Source of the DNA: Muribaculaceae bacterium
GTDB taxonomy: Bacteria; Bacteroidota; Bacteroidia; Bacteroidales; Muribaculaceae
Length of the DNA: 64,000 nt
Reading direction: 5' to 3'
Assembly (NCBI GenBank): GCA_017478855.1
Contig: JAFVCX010000137.1
Span: 16,162-80,161 of the forward strand
A program made the position numbers and the translations under genes. Below the pieces are notes generated by a model that was not told where the DNA came from, did no database searches, and was given only the letters and a program-made list of their open reading frames with translations. Shown one piece after another: positions 15,869 to 51,691 of this stretch (its first letter is position 1; the number at the start of each line of letters is the position of its first letter).

Positions 15869-17032
15869 TTATTCAAAAATGTGCCGCAAGCGGCTGAATA
15901 TTCGGTTCTTGATGCTCTCGGTGGGCTTGAGGTTGGTCGAGCCGTTGAGCGACTCGATGGCCTGCCGCTCAGTGGCATTGAGCGTTTCGGGCACATAGAC
16001 CATGACGTTGATGAGCATGTCGCCCATGCCATATCGGTTGGCATCGGGTAACCCCTTGCCTCGCAGGCGCAACACGGTGCCCGGCTGGGTACCCGGCTTG
16101 ATGGTGACCCGCACCTTGCCATCCACTGTGGGAACTTCAACTTTTCCGCCCAAAACGGCAGTGGGAAAGTCAATCATCAGGTTATAGATGAGGTCGTTGC
16201 CATCACGCTGCAATTGGTTGTCGGGAGTTTCCTCAATCACGATGAGCAAATCACCCGGGATGCCTCCACCCGGAGCGTCGTTTCCTTTGCCGCTCATTTT
16301 GAGCTGCATGCCGTCGGCCACGCCGGCCGGAATGTTGACCGAGATGACCTCTTCCTTGCGCACAAGGCCTTGCCCGCCGCAATGCTCACATTTTTGCTTG
16401 ATGCGCTTGCCCGAACCGCCACAAGTGTGGCACACCTGCTGGCTTTGCATGCGCATGAATCCCATCGACTGGATGACGGTTTCCACCCCTTGCCCATTGC
16501 AGGTGGGGCAGGGTTCGTATTCTGTGCCGTTTTTGGCTCCTGTGCCACGGCAAGCTTGGCATGAAACCATGCGTGGGATTTTCAGTTTTTTCTCAGTGCC
16601 ATGCGCCACATCGGCCAGCGTGACTTTCACACGCACACGCAGGTCGGTGCCTCGCGCCACGTGCTGCCTGCTGCGGGCTCGCGAGCCGCCGCCGAACCCT
16701 CCGAAGCCGCCAAAATCGAACCCAGCACCAAACACCGAGTTGAGGATGTCGTTGATGTCGAACCCTCCGAAACCCTCGCCATTGCCGCCCATTTGCTCGC
16801 CGGCAAAACCGAATTGGTCGTAGCGTTTGCGCTTCTCGTCATCGCTGAGCACGCTGTAGGCCTCGGCCGCTTCTTTGAACTTTTCCTCGGCCTCCTTAGC
16901 TTCTTGCTCACTCTTGCCGTGCTGGCGGTCGGGGTGATACTTGACGGCGAGTTTGCTATATGCTTTTTTGATGTCGGCAGTGGTGGCATTTTTGTCCACT
17001 CCGAGCACCTCGTAGTAATCTCTCTTTGCCAT
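15869..17032 (-). CDS. dnaJ: Molecular chaperone DnaJ
   Basis: Has the J-domain ([22 protein letters not shown]), a G/F-rich linker and four CxxCxGxG zinc-finger motifs. Confidence 0.95.
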
Positions 17033-43702: not shown

Positions 43703-44179
43703 CTATGCTTTGTCAACGAGAAGTGCCACCGCAAGGGCGCTTATGCCCTCTTCGCGGCCGGTGAAGCCCAGTCGCTCGGTGGTGGTGGCCTTGACAGAAA
43801 CTTGGGCCACATCGCAGGTCATGACCTGCGCCAGCGTTTGCTGCATGGCCGGGATGTGCGGGTTGAGCTTGGGACGCTCGGCGCAAATGGTGATATCGCA
43901 ATTACCCAACTCATACCCTTTTTCCCGCACCAGCCGCATGGTTTCTCGCAGCAATAGGCGGCTGTCGATGCCTTTATATTTCGGGTCGGTGTCAGGAAAA
44001 TGATAACCGATGTCGCGCAGGCTGGCAGCTCCCAGCAGGGCGTCGCACAGCGCGTGAATGGCCACATCGGCATCGCTGTGTCCCAGCAGCCCCATGCTGT
44101 GGTCGAGCTTCACCCCGCACAGCCACAAATCGCGTCCGGGCACAAGCCTGTGCACATCATATCCCTGACCTATTCTCAT
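43703..44179 (-). CDS. ispF: 2-C-methyl-D-erythritol 2,4-cyclodiphosphate synthase
   Basis: Contains MRIGQGYDVHRL, GHSDADVAIHALCDALLGA and ATTTERLGFTGR. Confidence 0.92.
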   Translation of the reverse strand: MRIGQGYDVHRLVPGRDLWLCGVKLDHSMGLLGHSDADVAIHALCDALLGAASLRDIGYHFPDTDPKYKGIDSRLLLRETMRLVREKGYELGNCDITICAERPKLNPHIPAMQQTLAQVMTCDVAQVSVKATTTERLGFTGREEGISALAVALLVDKA

Positions 44180-45372
44180 CGGCCAAAGAGGCTCTTAATG
44201 CCGTCCATGTCAAATGAAAGTGTGAATCGCAGCGTTTGGTCGAGTGGCGAGTTTTGAGCTGTGGCAATCATATAGGCCGCATCAAGGCGAATCACATTGA
44301 GCGAGAAACCGGCACCCAGTCCAAAGTACTGGCGGTCGCCGTTATATTTGCTTTCGTAGTAATAGCCGCCGCGCAAGAAGAACTGCTGGTTGTAGGCATA
44401 CTCGGCACCCAAAGAATAGGTGATGCGTTTCAGGGGATCATCGCTGAACGAGTCGAACATACCCGAAATCGACGACTTGTCTTTCCAGTCCTGCTCGGCT
44501 TGCCCATAGGCTTCGGCATTGGGGGTGCCATCTTCATTCAGATAGTCGTCGGCACGGGGCTTGGCCGGCACCATCAGTTTATTGGCGTCGAGCGAGAGGG
44601 TGAGGTTGTGGTAGTCGGCCAACGGGAAGGTAAAGGCCGTGCCCACACGCAGATTGGCCGGCAAGAAAGCCGGATTATTGCCACCGTTATAAGAGATTTT
44701 GCTGCCGATGTTGCTCAGGTTAAATCCCAGCGACCACTGGCACTCGTTGCGACCAATCACGGGGAATGTGGTGTAGTAGCCCGAAATGTCGGCGGCAAAT
44801 GCCGATGCGCCCTTCGACTGGTCATTGTCGTTATAGTCGCCCCCATAACCCAAGTCGCTATAGATGTAGCGCAGAGCCACACCCATCGAGAATTTCTCAC
44901 TCAATTTGCGCGAGTATCCGAGGTCTATCGCCATTTCAAAGGGATTGATGGTGCCCATCACATCGTTGCCCCCCGAAGTCATTTGAATCTCGCCCAGCGA
45001 GAAATAGCGCAACGAGGCACTCACGGCCTGATTGTCGTTGCTGCCAATCTTCATATAGCCGGCCAAGTTGGCCAGATAGATGTCGTTCACAATCTTGCGC
45101 AGCCACGGGGTATAACTCAGCGACACGCCGGCCGCGCTATAGGCGAAGGCATATTTCGACGGATTCCAAAACTGAGAGTTGGCATCGGGGTCGGTGGCCG
45201 CGCCCAAGTCGCCCATCGAGGCGCCTCGCGCATCGGGTATGATGCTCAGTGAGTTCACACCTGTGGTGATGGGGTTAAACTCGGTGTTCTTAATGTCGTC
45301 ATCGGCCCATGCCGCCACACTCATAGTGGCCAGCGCGAGCGCCCATATAAATGATAGAAAGCGATTTTTCAT
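44176..45372 (-). CDS. porV: Type IX secretion system outer-membrane channel/shuttle protein PorV (LptO)-like
   Basis: Has a signal peptide. The block SLSIIPDARGASMGDLGAATDPDANSQFWNPSKYAF matches my recollection of the PorV signature. It is a FadL-like barrel of about 400 aa. Confidence 0.7.
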   Translation of the reverse strand: MKNRFLSFIWALALATMSVAAWADDDIKNTEFNPITTGVNSLSIIPDARGASMGDLGAATDPDANSQFWNPSKYAFAYSAAGVSLSYTPWLRKIVNDIYLANLAGYMKIGSNDNQAVSASLRYFSLGEIQMTSGGNDVMGTINPFEMAIDLGYSRKLSEKFSMGVALRYIYSDLGYGGDYNDNDQSKGASAFAADISGYYTTFPVIGRNECQWSLGFNLSNIGSKISYNGGNNPAFLPANLRVGTAFTFPLADYHNLTLSLDANKLMVPAKPRADDYLNEDGTPNAEAYGQAEQDWKDKSSISGMFDSFSDDPLKRITYSLGAEYAYNQQFFLRGGYYYESKYNGDRQYFGLGAGFSLNVIRLDAAYMIATAQNSPLDQTLRFTLSFDMDGIKSLFGR

Positions 45373-45417: not shown

Positions 45418-46173
45418 TCACGATTTATTGTGTGACGGGGCAGAAAAGTTCAGATAGTCAAAAATCTGATTTAGGCCGGCAATGGTGTGGGGATGGGTTT
45501 GCGCGTCCTCGTCGGCAGTCCAGCCTTTTCCCTTGAGCCACAAGGCCGCACAGCCTATCGACTCGGCGGGCAAAATGTCTTTGCGCAAGCTGTCGCCCAC
45601 CACCAGCACCTGCTCGGCGGGCAATTCCAGCACATCCACACCCAGCCTGAAGATGGTGGGATTGGGCTTGCGAACGCCCACCACCGCACTCTCAATCACT
45701 CCGCGAAAGTAGTGGCGCAGGTCGAAATCTCGCAGCACGCTGTCCACGTTGCCGTAAAAATTGCTCACCAGCACCATGGGATAGTGTGCCGCCAAGCGTT
45801 CCAGCACCGGCCGCGCTTCTTCCACGCATTCACGAGCCGCCTCGTAGCAATAGCGAGCTATACCATCGCGGGCATCGGTGCCATGCAGGGCCTCTACGGC
45901 CAGCATGCCATTCTGCGCCAAGTAGTCAAGCTCAATCTGCATCTTTTTCACTAGCAAATCAAGGAAGTTGTCGTTGGGCAAAATGTGCCGCACTCGCGCC
46001 AGCTCGCGCTCGCCATGCACATAGGCCTCACGAAACTGCTCTTTGCCGATGGGCAGTGCGGCCCCAAAATAGCTCTTATAGCCCAGCCATATCACTTCGC
46101 TCCAATGCACACCACGGCTGTCGATGGTGCCGCCATAGTCAAAGATGATGCCTTTAATCTGATTCATGGTCAA
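45418..46173 (-). CDS. HAD-superfamily protein with non-canonical motif I (D-x-G instead of D-x-D)
   Basis: Motif I reads IIFDYGGTID. Also contains VSNFYG and VVGDSLRKDI. Overlaps the upstream CDP-alcohol transferase gene by 4 nt. Confidence 0.7.
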   Translation of the reverse strand: MTMNQIKGIIFDYGGTIDSRGVHWSEVIWLGYKSYFGAALPIGKEQFREAYVHGERELARVRHILPNDNFLDLLVKKMQIELDYLAQNGMLAVEALHGTDARDGIARYCYEAARECVEEARPVLERLAAHYPMVLVSNFYGNVDSVLRDFDLRHYFRGVIESAVVGVRKPNPTIFRLGVDVLELPAEQVLVVGDSLRKDILPAESIGCAALWLKGKGWTADEDAQTHPHTIAGLNQIFDYLNFSAPSHNKS

Positions 46174-47111
46174 AGTTCGTGGGTGAATTTTTTACACATG
46201 CGCTCGTGGCGAATAATCATATAGATGAGCATGGCGTTGAGCACAATCAGTTCAAATGCGAAATAGAGCCACGGCATCTGAATGATGACCGAAACAAACA
46301 TGGCTATGATGCGCGTGTTGAACGAGAGCATGTTGGTGTACTTCATCAGCGGCAGGCTCTGCTGGCGGAAGCGGTCGCGAAACGATTGCGGAATCACGCC
46401 ATCGGCATAGCGTTCTTTGAGCCGGGCACGCAGCTGCTGCATGCGCGGCGTGGTGGCTTCCTGCTGGCGGGTGTAGTTGCGATAGAACCACAAAGTGAGC
46501 TTCTGCATGAAGTTGCCGCGCCAAGTGAGCGAGCGCAGCTGCTCGGTGAGGGCGGTTGTGCTGTCAAGTTCGCTGCCTTCTTCACCCTTCAGGAAATACA
46601 GATGAAACTGGCGGTAATAGTCGGCCATGGCAGCCTGCTTGGCGTGACTGAGGCCGGCGGCAATGGCCAGCGTCCAAATCATCCAGTGATGATTGGCAAA
46701 AAAATCATAGAGTAACTTGTCGCCAAAAAACAGCTCGCGATACACGATGGCAAAATAGATGGCGATAAACCACAAGTCGCCGCTCAAACCATCAAGGATG
46801 CGGCCTATGCGGGAATACTGCTTGGTGAGGCGGGCCAGTTGGCCGTCGGCACTATCATAAGTGTTGGCCCAAATGATGAGGAAAATGCCCACATAGTTGA
46901 GCCAAAGCCACGGTTGCGCCCCAAAATACAGCAACACGCCGCCGGCCACCCCCAAAAAGATGGAGGCGATTGTCACCACATTGGGCGTTACGCCCAATCG
47001 TGCAAAGAGCTTGGCCCATAAGAATCCCAGCGGCCTGTAGAAATAAAGGTCGATATGTTCTTCGGTGTCCATCGACTTAAGCGATGCCCGATATTCTTCT
47101 TTCAGAGTCAT
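46170..47111 (-). CDS. CDP-alcohol phosphatidyltransferase family membrane protein
   Basis: Signature DSADGQLARLTKQYSRIGRILDGLSGD (D-x2-D-G-x2-A-R..G-x3-D). It is multi-TM. Confidence 0.8.
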   Translation of the reverse strand: MTLKEEYRASLKSMDTEEHIDLYFYRPLGFLWAKLFARLGVTPNVVTIASIFLGVAGGVLLYFGAQPWLWLNYVGIFLIIWANTYDSADGQLARLTKQYSRIGRILDGLSGDLWFIAIYFAIVYRELFFGDKLLYDFFANHHWMIWTLAIAAGLSHAKQAAMADYYRQFHLYFLKGEEGSELDSTTALTEQLRSLTWRGNFMQKLTLWFYRNYTRQQEATTPRMQQLRARLKERYADGVIPQSFRDRFRQQSLPLMKYTNMLSFNTRIIAMFVSVIIQMPWLYFAFELIVLNAMLIYMIIRHERMCKKFTHEL

Positions 47112-47196
47112 TTACGTCAGTTTGCTTTGAAATGATAAGGACAGTTCGGGAAGCCGTCGGCGCACTCTCATGCTTGCGTTCCCGCTTATGGCCTCG

Positions 47197-48072
47197 TCAT
47201 GATTTGTGATACTGCTTAACAATCGAGAGAATCGCCTTGGCAATATTGGGTGCAGCCTCAATGCGGCAGGGGGCAAAGCTGGGCCAGTCGTTAAAATCAA
47301 TGATTTTCACGCTGCCGTCTTGACCCACGATGCAGTCGCCGCCATAAATCACCACATTCAGCTCTTCGGCGGCACGATTGCACATGTCCATGAGCGCTTG
47401 CTTGTCAAATTCCAGCCCTTGTGAGCGGCCGTTCACCGCCTCGTGGCCATATTTGCTGTGACCTTCGTCGAAGGGGTAGAACCAATAAAAGAATTGTGAG
47501 CCGCGAATGCCATAGAACTTCACAAGGTCGCCCACAAGATGCACGTTGATCACTGCACGCTTAATGCCGCGATAGAAATACTCTTGAAGCACCTCTTGCG
47601 CCTCCTCGGCATGGCGGCAATACGACACGTCCTCTTTATGCATGGCGTGAAAATCGCCGCGTTTGATCCAGCAACTCTGGAAACCGGCTTTTTCGATGAG
47701 CGGCTTCACATTCTCGTTGGTGTTGACAATCAGGCTGTCGGGGTAGGGAATGCCATTGCCCAGCAAGATGCGTGTCATGCGCTCGCGCGTGCAGTTCTCA
47801 ATGCCGTAACCCGAATTGATGACCAGCCGGCCCTCATCCTCCAAGCGTTGCAGCCGTGCGATGCTGTCCTGCTGGCGGCACATGGCCAAGATAATATCTT
47901 CCTTGATGTCTTTCTCGTTCTCATTAAATTGCTCTTCGCTATACACATTCACGAGGCAGCCGCGCTTGCGCAGTTGCTCGGCAGTGGCGTTGAAGATGGC
48001 GGTGTCGTTGCCAATGTGGTTGGGCGAATAAGCTCCGGCCCTCATAATGCCTGCTATGGTGATTTCAGCCAT
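47197..48072 (-). CDS. ATP-grasp-like enzyme of unknown substrate
   Basis: The C-terminal block VVIYGGDCIVGQDGSVKIIDFNDWPSF resembles the ATP-grasp Mg/ATP site of RimK/ITPK1-type enzymes. The central block is CWIKRGDFHAMHKEDV. Confidence 0.55.
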   Translation of the reverse strand: MAEITIAGIMRAGAYSPNHIGNDTAIFNATAEQLRKRGCLVNVYSEEQFNENEKDIKEDIILAMCRQQDSIARLQRLEDEGRLVINSGYGIENCTRERMTRILLGNGIPYPDSLIVNTNENVKPLIEKAGFQSCWIKRGDFHAMHKEDVSYCRHAEEAQEVLQEYFYRGIKRAVINVHLVGDLVKFYGIRGSQFFYWFYPFDEGHSKYGHEAVNGRSQGLEFDKQALMDMCNRAAEELNVVIYGGDCIVGQDGSVKIIDFNDWPSFAPCRIEAAPNIAKAILSIVKQYHKS

Positions 48073-48083
48073 TGTGATATTGT

Positions 48084-48788
48084 TTATGATGGTTGTTGTA
48101 TGAATTGCTCGGCGGTAGCGATGTCGGCGGCATGGTCCACATCCACGATTTTCTCGATGGCGTAGGCACGCAGGTTCAGGCCGTTGGCAACCAGTGCCCG
48201 CTGAAAGTTGCGCATGCGGCTCACACCTTGCTCAATGCAGCGGTTCAGTGTGGTGAATGCCCGTGATGTCATGGCATAGATGCCACCTGAAACATATTTT
48301 GCGTCCTCAAAGGCCTTGTCGCAAAAAGCCGTGATGCGCATGTCTTCGTCCACTTCCACATAGAGTGGCTTTTCGTCGTCGATAAAGGGAGTCACAGCCC
48401 ACAGGCCGTCGCTTTCCTTATCGTTTTCAAACGCTTGAATGTAGCGTGCGAAATCATCTTCACGAAAGATGGTATCCACTGTGGTAAGGCAGAATTTGCC
48501 TTGCGGCAGCACTTGGCTCAGGTGCCAGAAACTGTGCATCGAGCTGGGCGTGGTGCGCACCACAAGATTCAGTGGCACGGGCAGCGTGAGCGAGCGCAAG
48601 AATTGCTGCACTTCCGTCATTTGCTCGTTGACGATAATGCTGATGCTCTCGGCATGGCAGCGCAAAAAAATGTTGATGAGGCGCTCTATCATGGGCTGCC
48701 CGTCCAAGCGCACGAGGGGCTTGGGCAGCGAAACGCCCTCTTGCGCGAGGCGTGAGCCTTCGCCGGCGGCTATGATGGCATAGTTCAT
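48084..48788 (-). CDS. NTP-transferase family nucleotidyltransferase (alcohol/sugar-phosphate cytidylyl- or uridylyltransferase-like)
   Basis: The N-terminal motif is MNYAIIAAGEGSRL (G-x-G-x-R-L), followed by KPLVRLDGQPMIERLI. Confidence 0.75.
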   Translation of the reverse strand: MNYAIIAAGEGSRLAQEGVSLPKPLVRLDGQPMIERLINIFLRCHAESISIIVNEQMTEVQQFLRSLTLPVPLNLVVRTTPSSMHSFWHLSQVLPQGKFCLTTVDTIFREDDFARYIQAFENDKESDGLWAVTPFIDDEKPLYVEVDEDMRITAFCDKAFEDAKYVSGGIYAMTSRAFTTLNRCIEQGVSRMRNFQRALVANGLNLRAYAIEKIVDVDHAADIATAEQFIQQPS

Positions 48789-49891
48789 TCTTCTTCGTCT
48801 TTTGTCAGGTCGAGCACAACGTTGTCTTTCCCCTTGTCGTGATATTGCTTGCGCAGCGGGTTGGCATTCATCTCATCATGGCGCAGCCGGCTGCGATAAA
48901 TGTCGATGGCCGCATAGATGGCTTGGCGCATCGATTGCTCGCTGGCCACACCCTTGCCGGCAATGTCATAACCCGTGCCGTGGTCGGGGCTGGTGCGCAC
49001 ATAGGGCAGGCCTGCCGTGTAATTCACGCCCTCGTCCATCGCGAGCGTTTTGAACGGAGCCAACCCTTGGTCGTGATACATGGCCAGCACAGCGTCAAAT
49101 TGCCGATACTGGCGGTTGCCAAAGAAGCCGTCGGCGGCATAGGGGCCGAAACACAAAATCTTTTCCTGCCCGTAGGCCTGCTCTATGGCCGGAGCGATGA
49201 CTTGCGCCTCCTCGTGGCCAAGCAGGCCATTCTCGCCGGCATGCGGATTCAGGGCAAGCACGGCGATGCGTGGCTTCACGATGCCAAAGTCGCGGGTCAA
49301 GGCCTTGTCGAGCAAGCGAATTTTCTCGAGTACCGACTCTTGGGTGATGGCGGCAGGCACTTGAGCTATGGGCAGGTGGGTGGTGACCAGTGCCACTCGC
49401 AGCCCCTCGTGGCAAAGCATCATCATGGCCGGCTCACCCTCGCCCAGACTGGCCTGCAGATAATCGGTGTGGCCGTTGAACTGGAATTCGTTGCTGCGAA
49501 TGTTCTCTTTATGGATGGGTGCCGTCACCAGCACGTCAATCAGGCCGTGCTTCAAGTCGGCCACGGCAGCTTCAAGAGCCTTGAAGGCGGCATTGCCGGC
49601 CTGTTTGCCGGTTTGACCCAATTCTATCTTCACTTCTTCGCCCGAATGCACATCCACCAGATTCACCGCACCGTCTTTGGCCTGTTCAGCACCCAGAATG
49701 TTATTTACAGAAAGTGGTTGCATTTCAATCGCCTTGCGATGATAAGCCATCACTTTGGGCGAGCCATATATGATGGGAGTGCACAGTTCCATAAACTGTG
49801 GGTCGCTCATCACTTTCAGTATCACCTCAGGGCCAATTCCGTTGGTGTCGCCCTGTGTGATGCCCACACGTATCAGTTTTTCGTTATTCAT
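48785..49891 (-). CDS. pdxA: 4-hydroxythreonine-4-phosphate dehydrogenase
   Basis: Contains GITQGDTNGIGPEVILK, VTAPIHKENI, GHTDYL, LNPHAGE and SPDHGT. Confidence 0.9.
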   Translation of the reverse strand: MNNEKLIRVGITQGDTNGIGPEVILKVMSDPQFMELCTPIIYGSPKVMAYHRKAIEMQPLSVNNILGAEQAKDGAVNLVDVHSGEEVKIELGQTGKQAGNAAFKALEAAVADLKHGLIDVLVTAPIHKENIRSNEFQFNGHTDYLQASLGEGEPAMMMLCHEGLRVALVTTHLPIAQVPAAITQESVLEKIRLLDKALTRDFGIVKPRIAVLALNPHAGENGLLGHEEAQVIAPAIEQAYGQEKILCFGPYAADGFFGNRQYRQFDAVLAMYHDQGLAPFKTLAMDEGVNYTAGLPYVRTSPDHGTGYDIAGKGVASEQSMRQAIYAAIDIYRSRLRHDEMNANPLRKQYHDKGKDNVVLDLTKDEEE

Positions 49892-50076
49892 TTATAATCA
49901 ATCATTTGTTTTTCACTCTTGCGCTCCTAATTGAGCATAAGACATTATCAATCGGCTAAATTACGAAAAAATATTGACACCACAACAATCCCCCTTGCCT
50001 ATTGTCCTCACACGGCACTTTATGACAAGTTGAATTCAAGTTTCGCGGCATTTTTGCTCACTCGGCACTTTTTTTA

Positions 50077-50084
50077 TACTTTTG
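50077..50084 (+). promoter_or_regulatory. Candidate -7 promoter box (TACTTTTG) abutting the start codon
   Basis: Matches TAnnTTTG. It ends 5 nt before the ATG at 50090, implying a leaderless or near-leaderless mRNA. Confidence 0.4.
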
Positions 50085-50089
50085 CGTCC

Positions 50090-51691
50090 ATGAATCGCAT
50101 TCGTCCTCGATTATCTAACGGAATCATCATCACTTTTTTTGCTGTTTTCACGACGGCTCTTCTCCTTTTTGTGTCGCCCGACAGCTATTTGCACGGTTTG
50201 TTCGCGCGGTGCGATTCAGCGTGGTTTTTCACTGCCGGGAAAGCGTGGATGAATGGACTTACTCCCTACATCGATTTTGCCGACAGCAAAGGGCCTCTCC
50301 TTTGGCTCATCTATGGCATGGGCTACCTCATCAGCCACAGTGACTACACTGGCGTGTTTTGGCTCTCGGTGATTTCCTACACCGCTACGTTCTATTGCCT
50401 TTATAGGGCCGCTCTGCTTTTTGTGCCGCGTCGTGCCCACGCCATCGTGAGCGCGTTGCTCATGGCCATTCCGTTTTTTCTGCCACCTTTCCACTACGAG
50501 GTCAGGGCCGAGGATTTTGCCAACCTGTATTTTGCCGTGTCGGTATGGGCTTTGGGCCGGTTGTGTTGCGGCCGGCCGGCCGATGGACGCTCAATGCGCC
50601 TTGCCGCCTTCGCCTTGGGGGTGTGCACGGGCGCGCTGCTCATGATTAAATACAACCTTGCGGTGGTGCAGCTCTCGCTGGTATTTGCCGCGGCAGTAAT
50701 CATTATTTGCCACAGCAAGAGGGAGTTTGTGCGCTCGTTTGTGTGCTATCTGGCGGGCGAGGCACTCATGGTGCTGCCCTTTGTGTTCTACTTGATGGTT
50801 GTGGGGGCTTTCGACGCTTTCGCTCATGAATATTTTCTCTCGACGGCAAGGCTGGTCAACGGCCTGCAAGTGTCGGCCATGCACAACAGCCTGTGGCACG
50901 ACATGCTCAACCCCGTGTTTGTCCTCTATGGTGTGGCGTTGTTGCTGGGCATCGTCATAGCCGGCAGATTTCTCAAAAGGTGGGCATGGATTCCCTATTT
51001 GGTTTTGGTCGTGTTTTATGCCGTGTTTTGCATAGGCTATTATGCGCGCTATCACTACTGCATGCTCGCCATTCTTTACTTTCCGCTGGCGGTGTACGTG
51101 GGCCGCAAAGTTTCCAGCCGTCGCAGTTCTGCTCAGATAGTGGGATTGACGGCGTGTGCGGTGATAGTCGCGAGTTGCGGCCTCAACTATTACTTGATGC
51201 GCAAGTCGTTTTGCGCCAGCTTTGACCGGCAGCTTGCCCAAGAATTCTATGCGGCATCGCACCTCGCAGGACAAGTGCCGCACCCCACGTTTGTATATCT
51301 CTTTTTTGGTGACTATGGTTATGGCGTGAAGGCGCAGTCGCTGCCGGGGTGCAAGTACTGGGCGTCGCAAAACGGAGCGTCCGGTGAAATGCACCGTGAG
51401 CAGATCGATGCCATCACGCGAAATCAACCGGATTTTGTGGTGGTTAAAGAGGAAGTTAATAGCGACAGCATCGCCGGTGTGGAGCAAACGAGCATCAATA
51501 AGATTTTGAGTGACAATGGCTATCGTGCCTATCCCTTGCCCGGAATCGGTGATTCGCCGGCTGCCGCACCGAGGCACATCATTCTTTACAGCCGCCATGC
51601 GCTGGCCGTTCCCCTTCATGCTGCCGAAGCAACATGGACCGACGTGATTTTGCGCCGAAATCCACTTGACCGAAATGCCAGCAATAAATAA
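50090..51691 (+). CDS. Polytopic membrane protein, putative GT-C-fold glycosyltransferase (paralog of 33962..35548)
   Basis: Start at MNRIRPRL. The block SPDSYLHGLFARCDSAWFFTAGKAWMNGLTPYIDFADSKGPLLWLIYGMGYL is near-identical to the 33962 product. The C-terminal block GDYGYGV..KYWASQNGAS..QPDFVV is shared. Confidence 0.55.
   Translation: MNRIRPRLSNGIIITFFAVFTTALLLFVSPDSYLHGLFARCDSAWFFTAGKAWMNGLTPYIDFADSKGPLLWLIYGMGYLISHSDYTGVFWLSVISYTATFYCLYRAALLFVPRRAHAIVSALLMAIPFFLPPFHYEVRAEDFANLYFAVSVWALGRLCCGRPADGRSMRLAAFALGVCTGALLMIKYNLAVVQLSLVFAAAVIIICHSKREFVRSFVCYLAGEALMVLPFVFYLMVVGAFDAFAHEYFLSTARLVNGLQVSAMHNSLWHDMLNPVFVLYGVALLLGIVIAGRFLKRWAWIPYLVLVVFYAVFCIGYYARYHYCMLAILYFPLAVYVGRKVSSRRSSAQIVGLTACAVIVASCGLNYYLMRKSFCASFDRQLAQEFYAASHLAGQVPHPTFVYLFFGDYGYGVKAQSLPGCKYWASQNGASGEMHREQIDAITRNQPDFVVVKEEVNSDSIAGVEQTSINKILSDNGYRAYPLPGIGDSPAAAPRHIILYSRHALAVPLHAAEATWTDVILRRNPLDRNASNK

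Follow-up and report, generated by a model that had tools for sequence, protein, structure and literature searches.

What is made by four genes packed tightly on the minus strand between pdxA and porV-ispF? The question is raised by a stretch of 64,000 nucleotides (hereafter the window: positions 16,162 to 80,161 of contig JAFVCX010000137.1, GenBank assembly GCA_017478855.1) from a Muribaculaceae bacterium, in which a sequence-only reading had described the four as a nucleotidyltransferase (NTP transferase), an ATP-grasp protein, a CDP-alcohol phosphatidyltransferase and a HAD hydrolase, a cassette abbreviated here as NTP-GRASP-CDPOH-HAD. The positions and translations of the open reading frames (ORFs) agree with that description. 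All the motifs that it quoted are found in the sequence, together with the 4-nt overlaps of pdxA with the NTP transferase and of the CDP-alcohol transferase with the HAD, and Pfam profiles score above their cut-offs for the NTP transferase, the CDP-alcohol transferase and the HAD. The same Pfam assignments and tight packing characterize the alternative inositol-lipid cluster of Heaver et al. (2022, Nat Microbiol, PMC9246714), which comprises an NTP transferase, a CDP-alcohol phosphatidyltransferase and a HAD hydrolase beside the myo-inositol-phosphate synthase (MIPS) gene in B. vulgatus and most Prevotella, and for which those authors proposed CDP-inositol as the donor while stating that the functions are unconfirmed. 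Since an NTP transferase, a CDP-alcohol transferase and a HAD adjoining MIPS match their description, the four genes are, going by gene content, the Muribaculaceae copy of this putative B. vulgatus/Prevotella-type cluster. The earlier link to a CDP-inositol route mined from the genomes of Prevotella-like Bacteroidota was hence well placed, and the underlying logic of cytidylyltransferase, CDP-alcohol transferase and phosphatase, likened to IPCT/DIPPS, holds.

The cluster itself is published and still putative. New with respect to the literature are an obligatory ATP-grasp component, a CDP-alcohol transferase that lacks the fourth Asp of its signature and a HAD with a D-x-G motif. The best explanation for the whole, which we judge to be somewhat probable, is a CDP-inositol route of Kennedy-like character, leading to inositol (sphingo)lipids and needing, as we suppose, a kinase/phosphatase pair.

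Co-inheritance of the cassette with inositol synthesis

The link to inositol comes from a survey of 301 Bacteroidales genomes sampled across the order; its counts are descriptive, related genomes being non-independent, and the pattern spans at least 24 genera. The ATP-grasp gene is present in 37 of the 301 genomes and MIPS in 44. MIPS accompanies ATP-grasp in 35 of those 37, as against nine of the 264 genomes without ATP-grasp, and eight of these nine encode a phosphatidylinositol-phosphate (PIP) synthase of the BT_1523 type. Where both genes are present they are mostly close together (at most 6 kb apart in 28 of 35 genomes), with MIPS directly following the HAD in 16 of 26 fetched loci. The order NTP-GRASP-CDPOH-HAD is retained, inserted genes aside, in 25 of the 26 loci fetched from other genomes (the HAD was not picked up in two loci), the sole exception being G278, which has no HAD anywhere. 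As this gene order recurs across loci of other Bacteroidales genomes, the arrangement is not due to chance. Scores of the transferase-family profile over the 301 genomes are bimodal, and orthologue-level matches (at least 442 bits) occur in exactly the 37 genomes with ATP-grasp; the search query was a different gene, so this co-occurrence is not circular. Wherever checked, the orthologous transferase adjoins ATP-grasp. Among the inserted genes is one for a flippase-like LPG_synthase_TM protein (PF03706, 330-360 aa), which lies between the transferase and the HAD in many orthologous loci (L013, L016, L019-L021, L027, L109, L111, L114) and is not found in the cassette of the window.

The sequence-only reading had found no MIPS in the window, and there is none; a search of the rest of the assembly located a single copy at C127:14214-15521, unlinked to the cassette. 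The adjacency to MIPS that marks the published cluster is seen in orthologous loci of other families, and exceptions to it are on record, e.g. P. copri (PMC9246714). Around this MIPS (C127:7971-19628) are a polysaccharide-utilisation locus of the SusD/SusE/SusF type and capsule genes, encoding a Wzz-tyrosine kinase and a UDP-glucose dehydrogenase. No BT_1523-type PIP synthase was found in a search of the whole assembly.

Two carriers of the cassette, G217 (100% complete) and G109, have no MIPS and yet keep a fused NTP-GRASP, the transferase, the flippase-like LPG_synthase_TM gene and the HAD. They must therefore use a starting compound that MIPS does not provide, presumably inositol from outside, in which case a kinase would be required. 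A comparable situation is known from T. forsythia, where MIPS is absent and a BEPIS homologue is present: this species makes its inositol ceramides solely from exogenous inositol, and no inositol kinase is known for it (PMC4587543). Conversely, the same pdxA-adjacent site in G168 holds a minimal cassette of an IspD-like cytidylyltransferase and a paralogous transferase. It comes without ATP-grasp, HAD or MIPS, which suggests that the ATP-grasp and the HAD are specific to the inositol version of the cassette.

The other route described by Heaver et al. is encoded by the BT-like cluster, which consists of a PIP synthase, a PgpA-type phosphatase and a PAP2 inositol-phosphoceramide (IPC) synthase (PMC9246714). 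A BT_1523-type synthase is also encoded in five of the 37 ATP-grasp genomes. In the three other sampled Muribaculaceae (G020:C8, G161:C33 and G278:C5) a PgpA-GtrA-PIPS-PAP2_3 block is inserted between the ATP-grasp and transferase genes, at the place where the plain cassette of the present genome has a gap of 85 nt. One of the three, G278 (99% complete), combines the nested PgpA with the absence of any HAD homologue. Thus, the alternative and BT-like routes are not always alternatives to each other and, because both co-occur in one operon, they may not be fully redundant.

The present bin contains a second pdxA-NTP-GRASP-CDPOH-HAD set, on contig C9 (37925-42308), with 65-82% protein identity to the first. 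We rejected it as a true paralogue: for most genes between 25 and 42 kb of C9, other contigs hold counterparts in collinear order with 52-82% identity, and the GC content is 50.0% as against 53.2%. Most likely, C9 is a contig of a related Muribaculaceae genome that was co-binned into this metagenome-assembled genome (MAG).

Signature motifs and fold matches of the four proteins

The ATP-grasp protein goes unmentioned in the main text and searched supplements of Heaver et al. (PMC9246714), and our literature search found no paper connecting an ATP-grasp enzyme with inositol and sphingolipids in Bacteroides. Being constant in genomes with the orthologous transferase (37 of 37), fused to other parts of the cassette, and the best conserved of the four proteins (82% identity between the two cassette copies in the bin, against 65-75% for the others), it is an obligatory, previously unreported member. 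The fusions comprise at least 1146 proteins of the NTP-GRASP type, including those of Dysgonomonadaceae, a Tannerella sp. MAG and Bacteroides sedimenti, as well as a GRASP-HAD protein and NTP-GRASP-CDPOH triple fusions of 844 and 865 aa. The sequence-only reading had placed both the ATP-grasp and the D-x-G HAD outside the described schemes; this stands for the ATP-grasp, but the HAD is part of the published scheme as 'BV HAD', with only its D-x-G motif having gone unremarked. It had also suggested that the head group may be new, a proposal that we do not retain: nothing indicates a new head group, the one expected being very probably ordinary inositol, and the constancy of the ATP-grasp in an inositol-specific cassette makes preparation of the precursor likelier than decoration of a novel head group. 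Outside the cassette, an unexpected architecture is presented by P0231 (691 aa), a PAS-HisKA-HATPase_c sensor histidine kinase with a C-terminal domain of this same ATP-grasp family (residues 423-683).

Assigning the ATP-grasp to a reaction is less straightforward. It has no match in Pfam, and its NCBIfam matches (RimK, MptN and LysX) are sub-threshold, with the RimK family TIGR00768, matched by the N-terminal part alone, reaching 35.6 bits where the cut-off is 143.4. The AlphaFold2 model (pLDDT 96) is a complete ATP-grasp fold, for which the best structural matches are practically tied: RimK (Z 22.1), ArgX/LysX (21.7/21.3), human ITPK1 (20.1, 264 residues) and Ddl (20.0). A Foldseek search and the ESM Atlas each likewise tie between ligases of the RimK/LysX/Ddl type and kinases of the ITPK type. 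A profile of the family run against the PDB recovers PsnB (2.6e-5) and several ITPK1-family chains (2e-4 to 0.01), and the sub-threshold Pfam votes over 74 homologues are split between RimK (7), ATPgrasp_ST (7) and Ins134_P3_kin (6). At the level of motifs, the metal/ATP block is what discriminates, and it sides with ITPK. The ATP-grasp carries the ITPK block D-x-N-x-x-P-(S/G)-(F/Y), its IIDFNDWPSF aligning with VVDVNVFPSY (1z2n) and IVDLNYLPSF (7pup); within the family N261, D262 and P264 do not vary, and conservation of D259 is at least 90%. In the ligases ArgX and PsnB, on the other hand, E-L-N is aligned with the D-F-N of the family. We favour a kinase because the D-x-N block is common to ITPKs and because the pathway offers hydroxyls and no carboxylate for a ligase. 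That the protein phosphorylates inositol or an inositol monophosphate has, in our estimate, an even or slightly better chance of being right.

Of the NCBIfam models, the NTP transferase is matched best by IPCT/DIPPS (NF041135), through the IPCT half of that model (E 5.7e-12, residues 4-230), at 45.3 bits against a cut-off of 580, i.e. short of an equivalog-level IPCT assignment. Its sequence matches in the PDB include 4jd0 (E 1.6e-4), the T. maritima inositol-1-phosphate cytidylyltransferase (PMC12275187), and the G-x-G-x-R ... K signature of nucleotidyltransferases is present as AAGEGSRL...PKP. It is thus a candidate CTP:inositol-phosphate cytidylyltransferase, with CDP-inositol as the likely intermediate. 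Experimental precedent for a CDP-inositol route, to ether lipids via IPCT and BEPIS, comes from Rhodothermus marinus (Jorge 2015, as cited in PMC4587543).

The CDP-alcohol transferase matches PF01066 well above the cut-off of 22 bits, and the model confirms the CDP-AP fold. Its closest solved relatives by sequence are AF2299 (E 6e-6) and then PIP synthases (PIPS). The AlphaFold2 model (pLDDT 94) finds A. fulgidus IPCT-DIPPS (4mnd) as the best fold match (Z 17.0, rmsd 2.8 Å, 189 residues), with PIP synthases at Z 14.6 and 14.2 and a choline phosphotransferase at Z 10. [quoted passage not shown] The transferase has D86xxD89G90xxA93R94...G103xxxD107, followed by an invariant G108 and a near-invariant G111 at the D4 position. 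Thus seven of the eight residues are present and invariant, and the fourth Asp is missing, a point on which the sequence-only reading had not remarked. The D4 position is a Gly in all 27 aligned cassette homologues (at least 90% in an alignment of 29 sequences); the residue after it is mostly D, the others being N (three homologues), V and E (one homologue each). In the sister genomes, the nested BT-type PIP synthases retain D-x3-D. In the clustering of homologues, CDP-alcohol transferases of 302 aa fall together with proteins of 553 aa. Further invariant polar residues of the transferase, H156, D164, H170 and E181, are candidates for a replacement base. Serine palmitoyltransferase is encoded in the genome (657.5 bits against an NCBIfam cut-off of 640), which makes dihydroceramide a plausible acceptor; the CDP-alcohol transferase is a candidate CDP-inositol:(dihydro)ceramide/diacylglycerol inositolphosphotransferase.

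A paralogous transferase clade, 36-42% identical, has the same LDGxxGD motif without D4 and occurs in genomes with or without the inositol cassette (L117-L122: G254, G266, G168, G103, G130 and G001). Its neighbours are genes for PlsC-like acyltransferase, LPG_synthase_TM, FabH-like, nitroreductase-like and GAF proteins. The pdxA-transferase-IspD-like cytidylyltransferase arrangement of G168 looks to be another kind of head-group cassette that occupies the same site.

In the HAD, the FDYGGT motif I, with Gly in place of Asp+2, turns out to be a conserved feature. All 23 homologues have FD[YF]G[GA]T[IL]D, with the nucleophile D10 in place and the Asp+2 position an invariant Gly, so that the D-x-D of HAD phosphatases, typical of the aligned solved relatives, is absent. 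Motifs II-IV are present (S135/N136, K167, D192 and D197, all conserved), and D16, H21 and W22 are additional invariants. Judged by these residues, the protein looks active yet devoid of the usual general acid/base. The phosphatase YihX of E. coli is another HAD with D-x-G, so that activity is conceivable with this motif.

A candidate pathway and its rivals

In the proposed pathway the NTP transferase would activate an inositol phosphate with CTP to give CDP-inositol, from which the membrane CDP-alcohol transferase would move phospho-inositol onto a lipid acceptor, most likely dihydroceramide and perhaps also diacylglycerol, the product being phosphoinositol-dihydroceramide (PI-DHC) or phosphatidylinositol (PI). 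The ATP-grasp would most likely phosphorylate inositol or the MIPS product, with the HAD as its predicted phosphatase partner, the pair together supplying a correctly phosphorylated precursor. The product of MIPS is 1D-inositol-3-phosphate (Ins3P), whereas canonical inositol lipids are linked via the 1D-1 position; hence such a pair could serve to move the phosphate. Two orders of events may be conceived. In the first, Ins3P would be converted via Ins(1,3)P2 to Ins1P before activation. In the second, the bisphosphate would be activated and the HAD would strip the extra phosphate from the lipid product, as the PIP phosphatase PgpA does in the BT pathway. We lean weakly towards the second order, with the HAD acting on the lipid product, because the MIPS-less genomes retain the HAD and because G278 has a nested PgpA and no HAD. 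The specific proposal that the phosphate of the MIPS product is shifted from 1D-3 to 1D-1 by a kinase/phosphatase pair dedicated to this task, made up of the ATP-grasp and the D-x-G HAD and acting either ahead of CDP activation or following it, so as to give normally linked lipids, is a tentative one that we consider rather unlikely.

Several observations weigh against the Kennedy-like pathway with its kinase/phosphatase pair. Homology separates no kinase from a ligase in the ATP-grasp, given the Z scores of 22.1 for RimK and 20.1 for ITPK1, the split Pfam votes and the tie in the Atlas. The MIPS product is already accepted by known IPCTs, so that established chemistry does not strictly require a kinase. 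The transferase lacks the presumed catalytic base and the HAD the Asp+2 general acid/base of phosphatases, and for either a different reaction is possible. The retention of the HAD in the two MIPS-less genomes argues against a simple phosphatase role on the MIPS product, and G278 keeps NTP-GRASP-CDPOH along with a complete BT-like set and dispenses with the HAD. Finally, MIPS is unlinked to the cassette in the present genome.

Among the rivals the one that fares best, though we think it unlikely, is a plain route of the Rhodothermus type, in which the MIPS product is turned into CDP-L-inositol and then into lipid, the ATP-grasp only salvages exogenous inositol and the HAD is accessory or a housekeeping enzyme. 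The fusion of NTP transferase and putative kinase indeed resembles the kinase/cytidylyltransferase pairs of the Kennedy pathway. A salvage kinase would fit the MIPS-less carriers and the data on T. forsythia, and the IPCT/BEPIS chemistry is established and needs no kinase (PMC4587543). However, an accessory salvage enzyme is expected to be lost at times, whereas none of the 37 genomes with the orthologous transferase lacks the ATP-grasp, which shows the highest conservation of the four components and is co-conserved with MIPS itself; the HAD, too, is retained in nearly every locus examined.

Improbable, in turn, is that the ATP-grasp is a genuine RimK/LysX-type ligase, which would join an amino acid or other carboxylate to the head group or to a precursor of it and so yield a modified, new head group of the kind that the sequence-only reading had thought possible. 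RimK and ArgX/LysX are the top fold matches (Z 22.1 and 21.7), the weak NCBIfam matches are to RimK, MptN and LysX, and the nearest Atlas clusters are partly annotated as RimK; but these matches fall far below the family cut-offs, the Mg site is D-x-N rather than the E-x-N of the aligned ligases, and no carboxylate substrate is evident in the cluster. Furthermore, B. vulgatus and P. veroralis, both carriers of the alternative cluster, make ordinary PI-DHC as determined by high-performance liquid chromatography-mass spectrometry (PMC9246714).

That last observation also bears on a still less probable alternative, in which the product is no membrane lipid at all: a soluble inositol phosphodiester like di-myo-inositol-phosphate (DIP), or a phospho-inositol decoration of capsule or lipopolysaccharide. 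DIPPS, the closest solved relative of the transferase, has substrates that are all soluble, MIPS-dependent inositol has been found in capsule (PMC9246714), and MIPS adjoins capsule genes in the present genome. Against this stand the frequent presence of a flippase-like LPG_synthase_TM gene within the cassette, the position of the paralogous transferase clade beside PlsC-like acyltransferase and FabH-like genes, and the production of PI-DHC by species that have the alternative cluster alone (PMC9246714).

The scheme of Heaver et al. (PMC9246714), in which CDP-inositol and diacylglycerol yield PI-DAG, the HAD is the PI-DHC synthase that moves phosphoinositol to dihydroceramide, as its fusion to the CDP-alcohol transferase in P. 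veroralis might be taken to indicate, and the ATP-grasp is irrelevant, appears very improbable to us, since it ignores the constant fourth gene and since the HAD belongs to the soluble HAD-IA proteins and has the catalytic residues of a phospho-aspartyl mechanism. The IPC synthases that are known are PAP2-type membrane enzymes; in the two hybrid loci (G020 and G161) an enzyme of this PAP2_3 type accompanies the HAD, and the HAD-less G278 has one as well.

Should the proposed repositioning of the phosphate by ATP-grasp and HAD prove true, the ATP-grasp would be the first bacterial ITPK-like kinase in lipid head-group synthesis, coupled to a transferase clade working without the canonical catalytic Asp. 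Tannerella-type organisms make such lipids from host inositol, and for the inositol kinase that they are missing the ATP-grasp is a concrete candidate. With a fourth enzyme being obligatory, reconstitution using the three published genes alone may fail. The clade-wide loss of a supposedly invariant catalytic Asp, along with a HAD that lacks its general acid, raises mechanistic questions for two well-studied superfamilies. In gut Bacteroidales, inositol lipids and inositol sphingolipids influence both the fitness of the bacteria and their interaction with the host. The alternative pathway, reported as commoner in Prevotella (PMC9246714), is widespread across Bacteroidales families, Muribaculaceae included.

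Locus layout and known systems

The coordinates of the cassette and of its flanking genes are collected in the table. The start of the NTP transferase gene overlaps the pdxA stop by 4 nt, and 11 nt separate it from the ATP-grasp gene. The overlap of the HAD with the CDP-alcohol transferase, again of 4 nt, assumes a TTG start, an ATG two codons later, at 46167, being equally possible. A scan for sigma-70 promoters and terminators, whose model is uninformative for Bacteroidota, gave a terminator-like hairpin (43614-43595) after ispF.

Features of the cassette and its flanks in the window, listed in the direction of transcription
Feature	Position	Strand	Product length, matches and motifs
pdxA (4-hydroxythreonine-4-phosphate dehydrogenase)	48785..49891	-	PF04166, 385.7 bits
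NTP transferase	48084..48788	-	234 aa; PF12804 and PF00483 above cut-offs; motif AAGEGSRL
ATP-grasp	47197..48072	-	291 aa; ...IYGGDCIVGQDGSVKIIDFNDWPSF; no Pfam match
CDP-alcohol transferase	46170..47111	-	313 aa; DSADGQLAR...G...D; PF01066, 38.7 bits
HAD hydrolase (HAD-IA)	45418..46173	-	251 aa from TTG; PF00702, 61.4 bits
porV	44176..45372	-	downstream of HAD
ispF	43703..44179	-	downstream of porV

The gene immediately upstream of the cassette is pdxA in 12 of the first 20 fetched loci, from many families. We considered it as an enzyme of the pathway; apart from that on the co-binned contig C9, it is the only pdxA of the genome and so probably a housekeeping gene, and no functional reason for the linkage was found. 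A scan for loci related to the cassette recovered none but those of close relatives within the Muribaculaceae. Divergent from it is an ORF of 586 aa (49931-51691, plus strand) with no Pfam match, in a region where the AT skew is strongly negative (to -0.33).

Among known systems, those closest to the NTP transferase and CDP-alcohol transferase are IPCT with BEPIS of Rhodothermus marinus (Jorge, Borges & Santos 2015, as cited in PMC4587543) and IPCT/DIPPS of Archaeoglobus and Thermotoga. In both, a soluble cytidylyltransferase makes CDP-inositol, which a membrane CDP-alcohol transferase uses as the head-group donor, and they furnish the best curated, sequence and fold matches of the two proteins. 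They differ in needing neither an ATP-grasp nor a HAD, and in that DIPPS retains the fourth Asp; the presumed acceptor of the cassette, moreover, is ceramide or diacylglycerol rather than an ether lipid or inositol phosphate.

For the ATP-grasp the comparison is with inositol-phosphate kinases of the ITPK1 type (PF05770; PDB 2qb5, 1z2n, 7pup and 8oxe). The two have in common the ATP-grasp fold (Z 18-20 over 244-264 residues) and a Mg/ATP block of the form D-x-N-x-x-P-S-[FY], and the gene context is in keeping with the class of substrate. Whereas ITPK1-type kinases act on InsP3/InsP4, the substrate expected here is inositol or its monophosphate; there is no Pfam match, the profile E-values are only 2e-4 to 0.01, and RimK/LysX score as well or better by fold. 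The high fold similarity to RimK/LysX ligases is, however, of a kind common to all ATP-grasp enzymes.

The cluster of Heaver et al. (PMC9246714) and the cassette are alike in tying an NTP transferase, a CDP-alcohol phosphatidyltransferase and a HAD to MIPS and in being largely mutually exclusive with the BT_1522/23/25 cluster. An orthologous locus of Bacteroides ihuae (G132) has the same gene order as the cassette, while the B. vulgatus cluster is likened to it by description. The published scheme differs in comprising three enzymes and says nothing of an ATP-grasp, of a transferase that lacks its fourth Asp or of D-x-G in the HAD; MIPS adjoins the cluster there, whereas it is unlinked in the present genome. 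The BT_1522-BT_1526 cluster of B. thetaiotaomicron (MIPS, PIP synthase, PgpA-type PIP phosphatase and PAP2 IPC synthase) differs more deeply, in that its donor is CDP-diacylglycerol and not CDP-inositol, but has MIPS and the presumed end products in common with the cassette. If the HAD acts on the lipid, a phosphorylated intermediate that is then relieved of its extra phosphate by a phosphatase may be the common logic of both.

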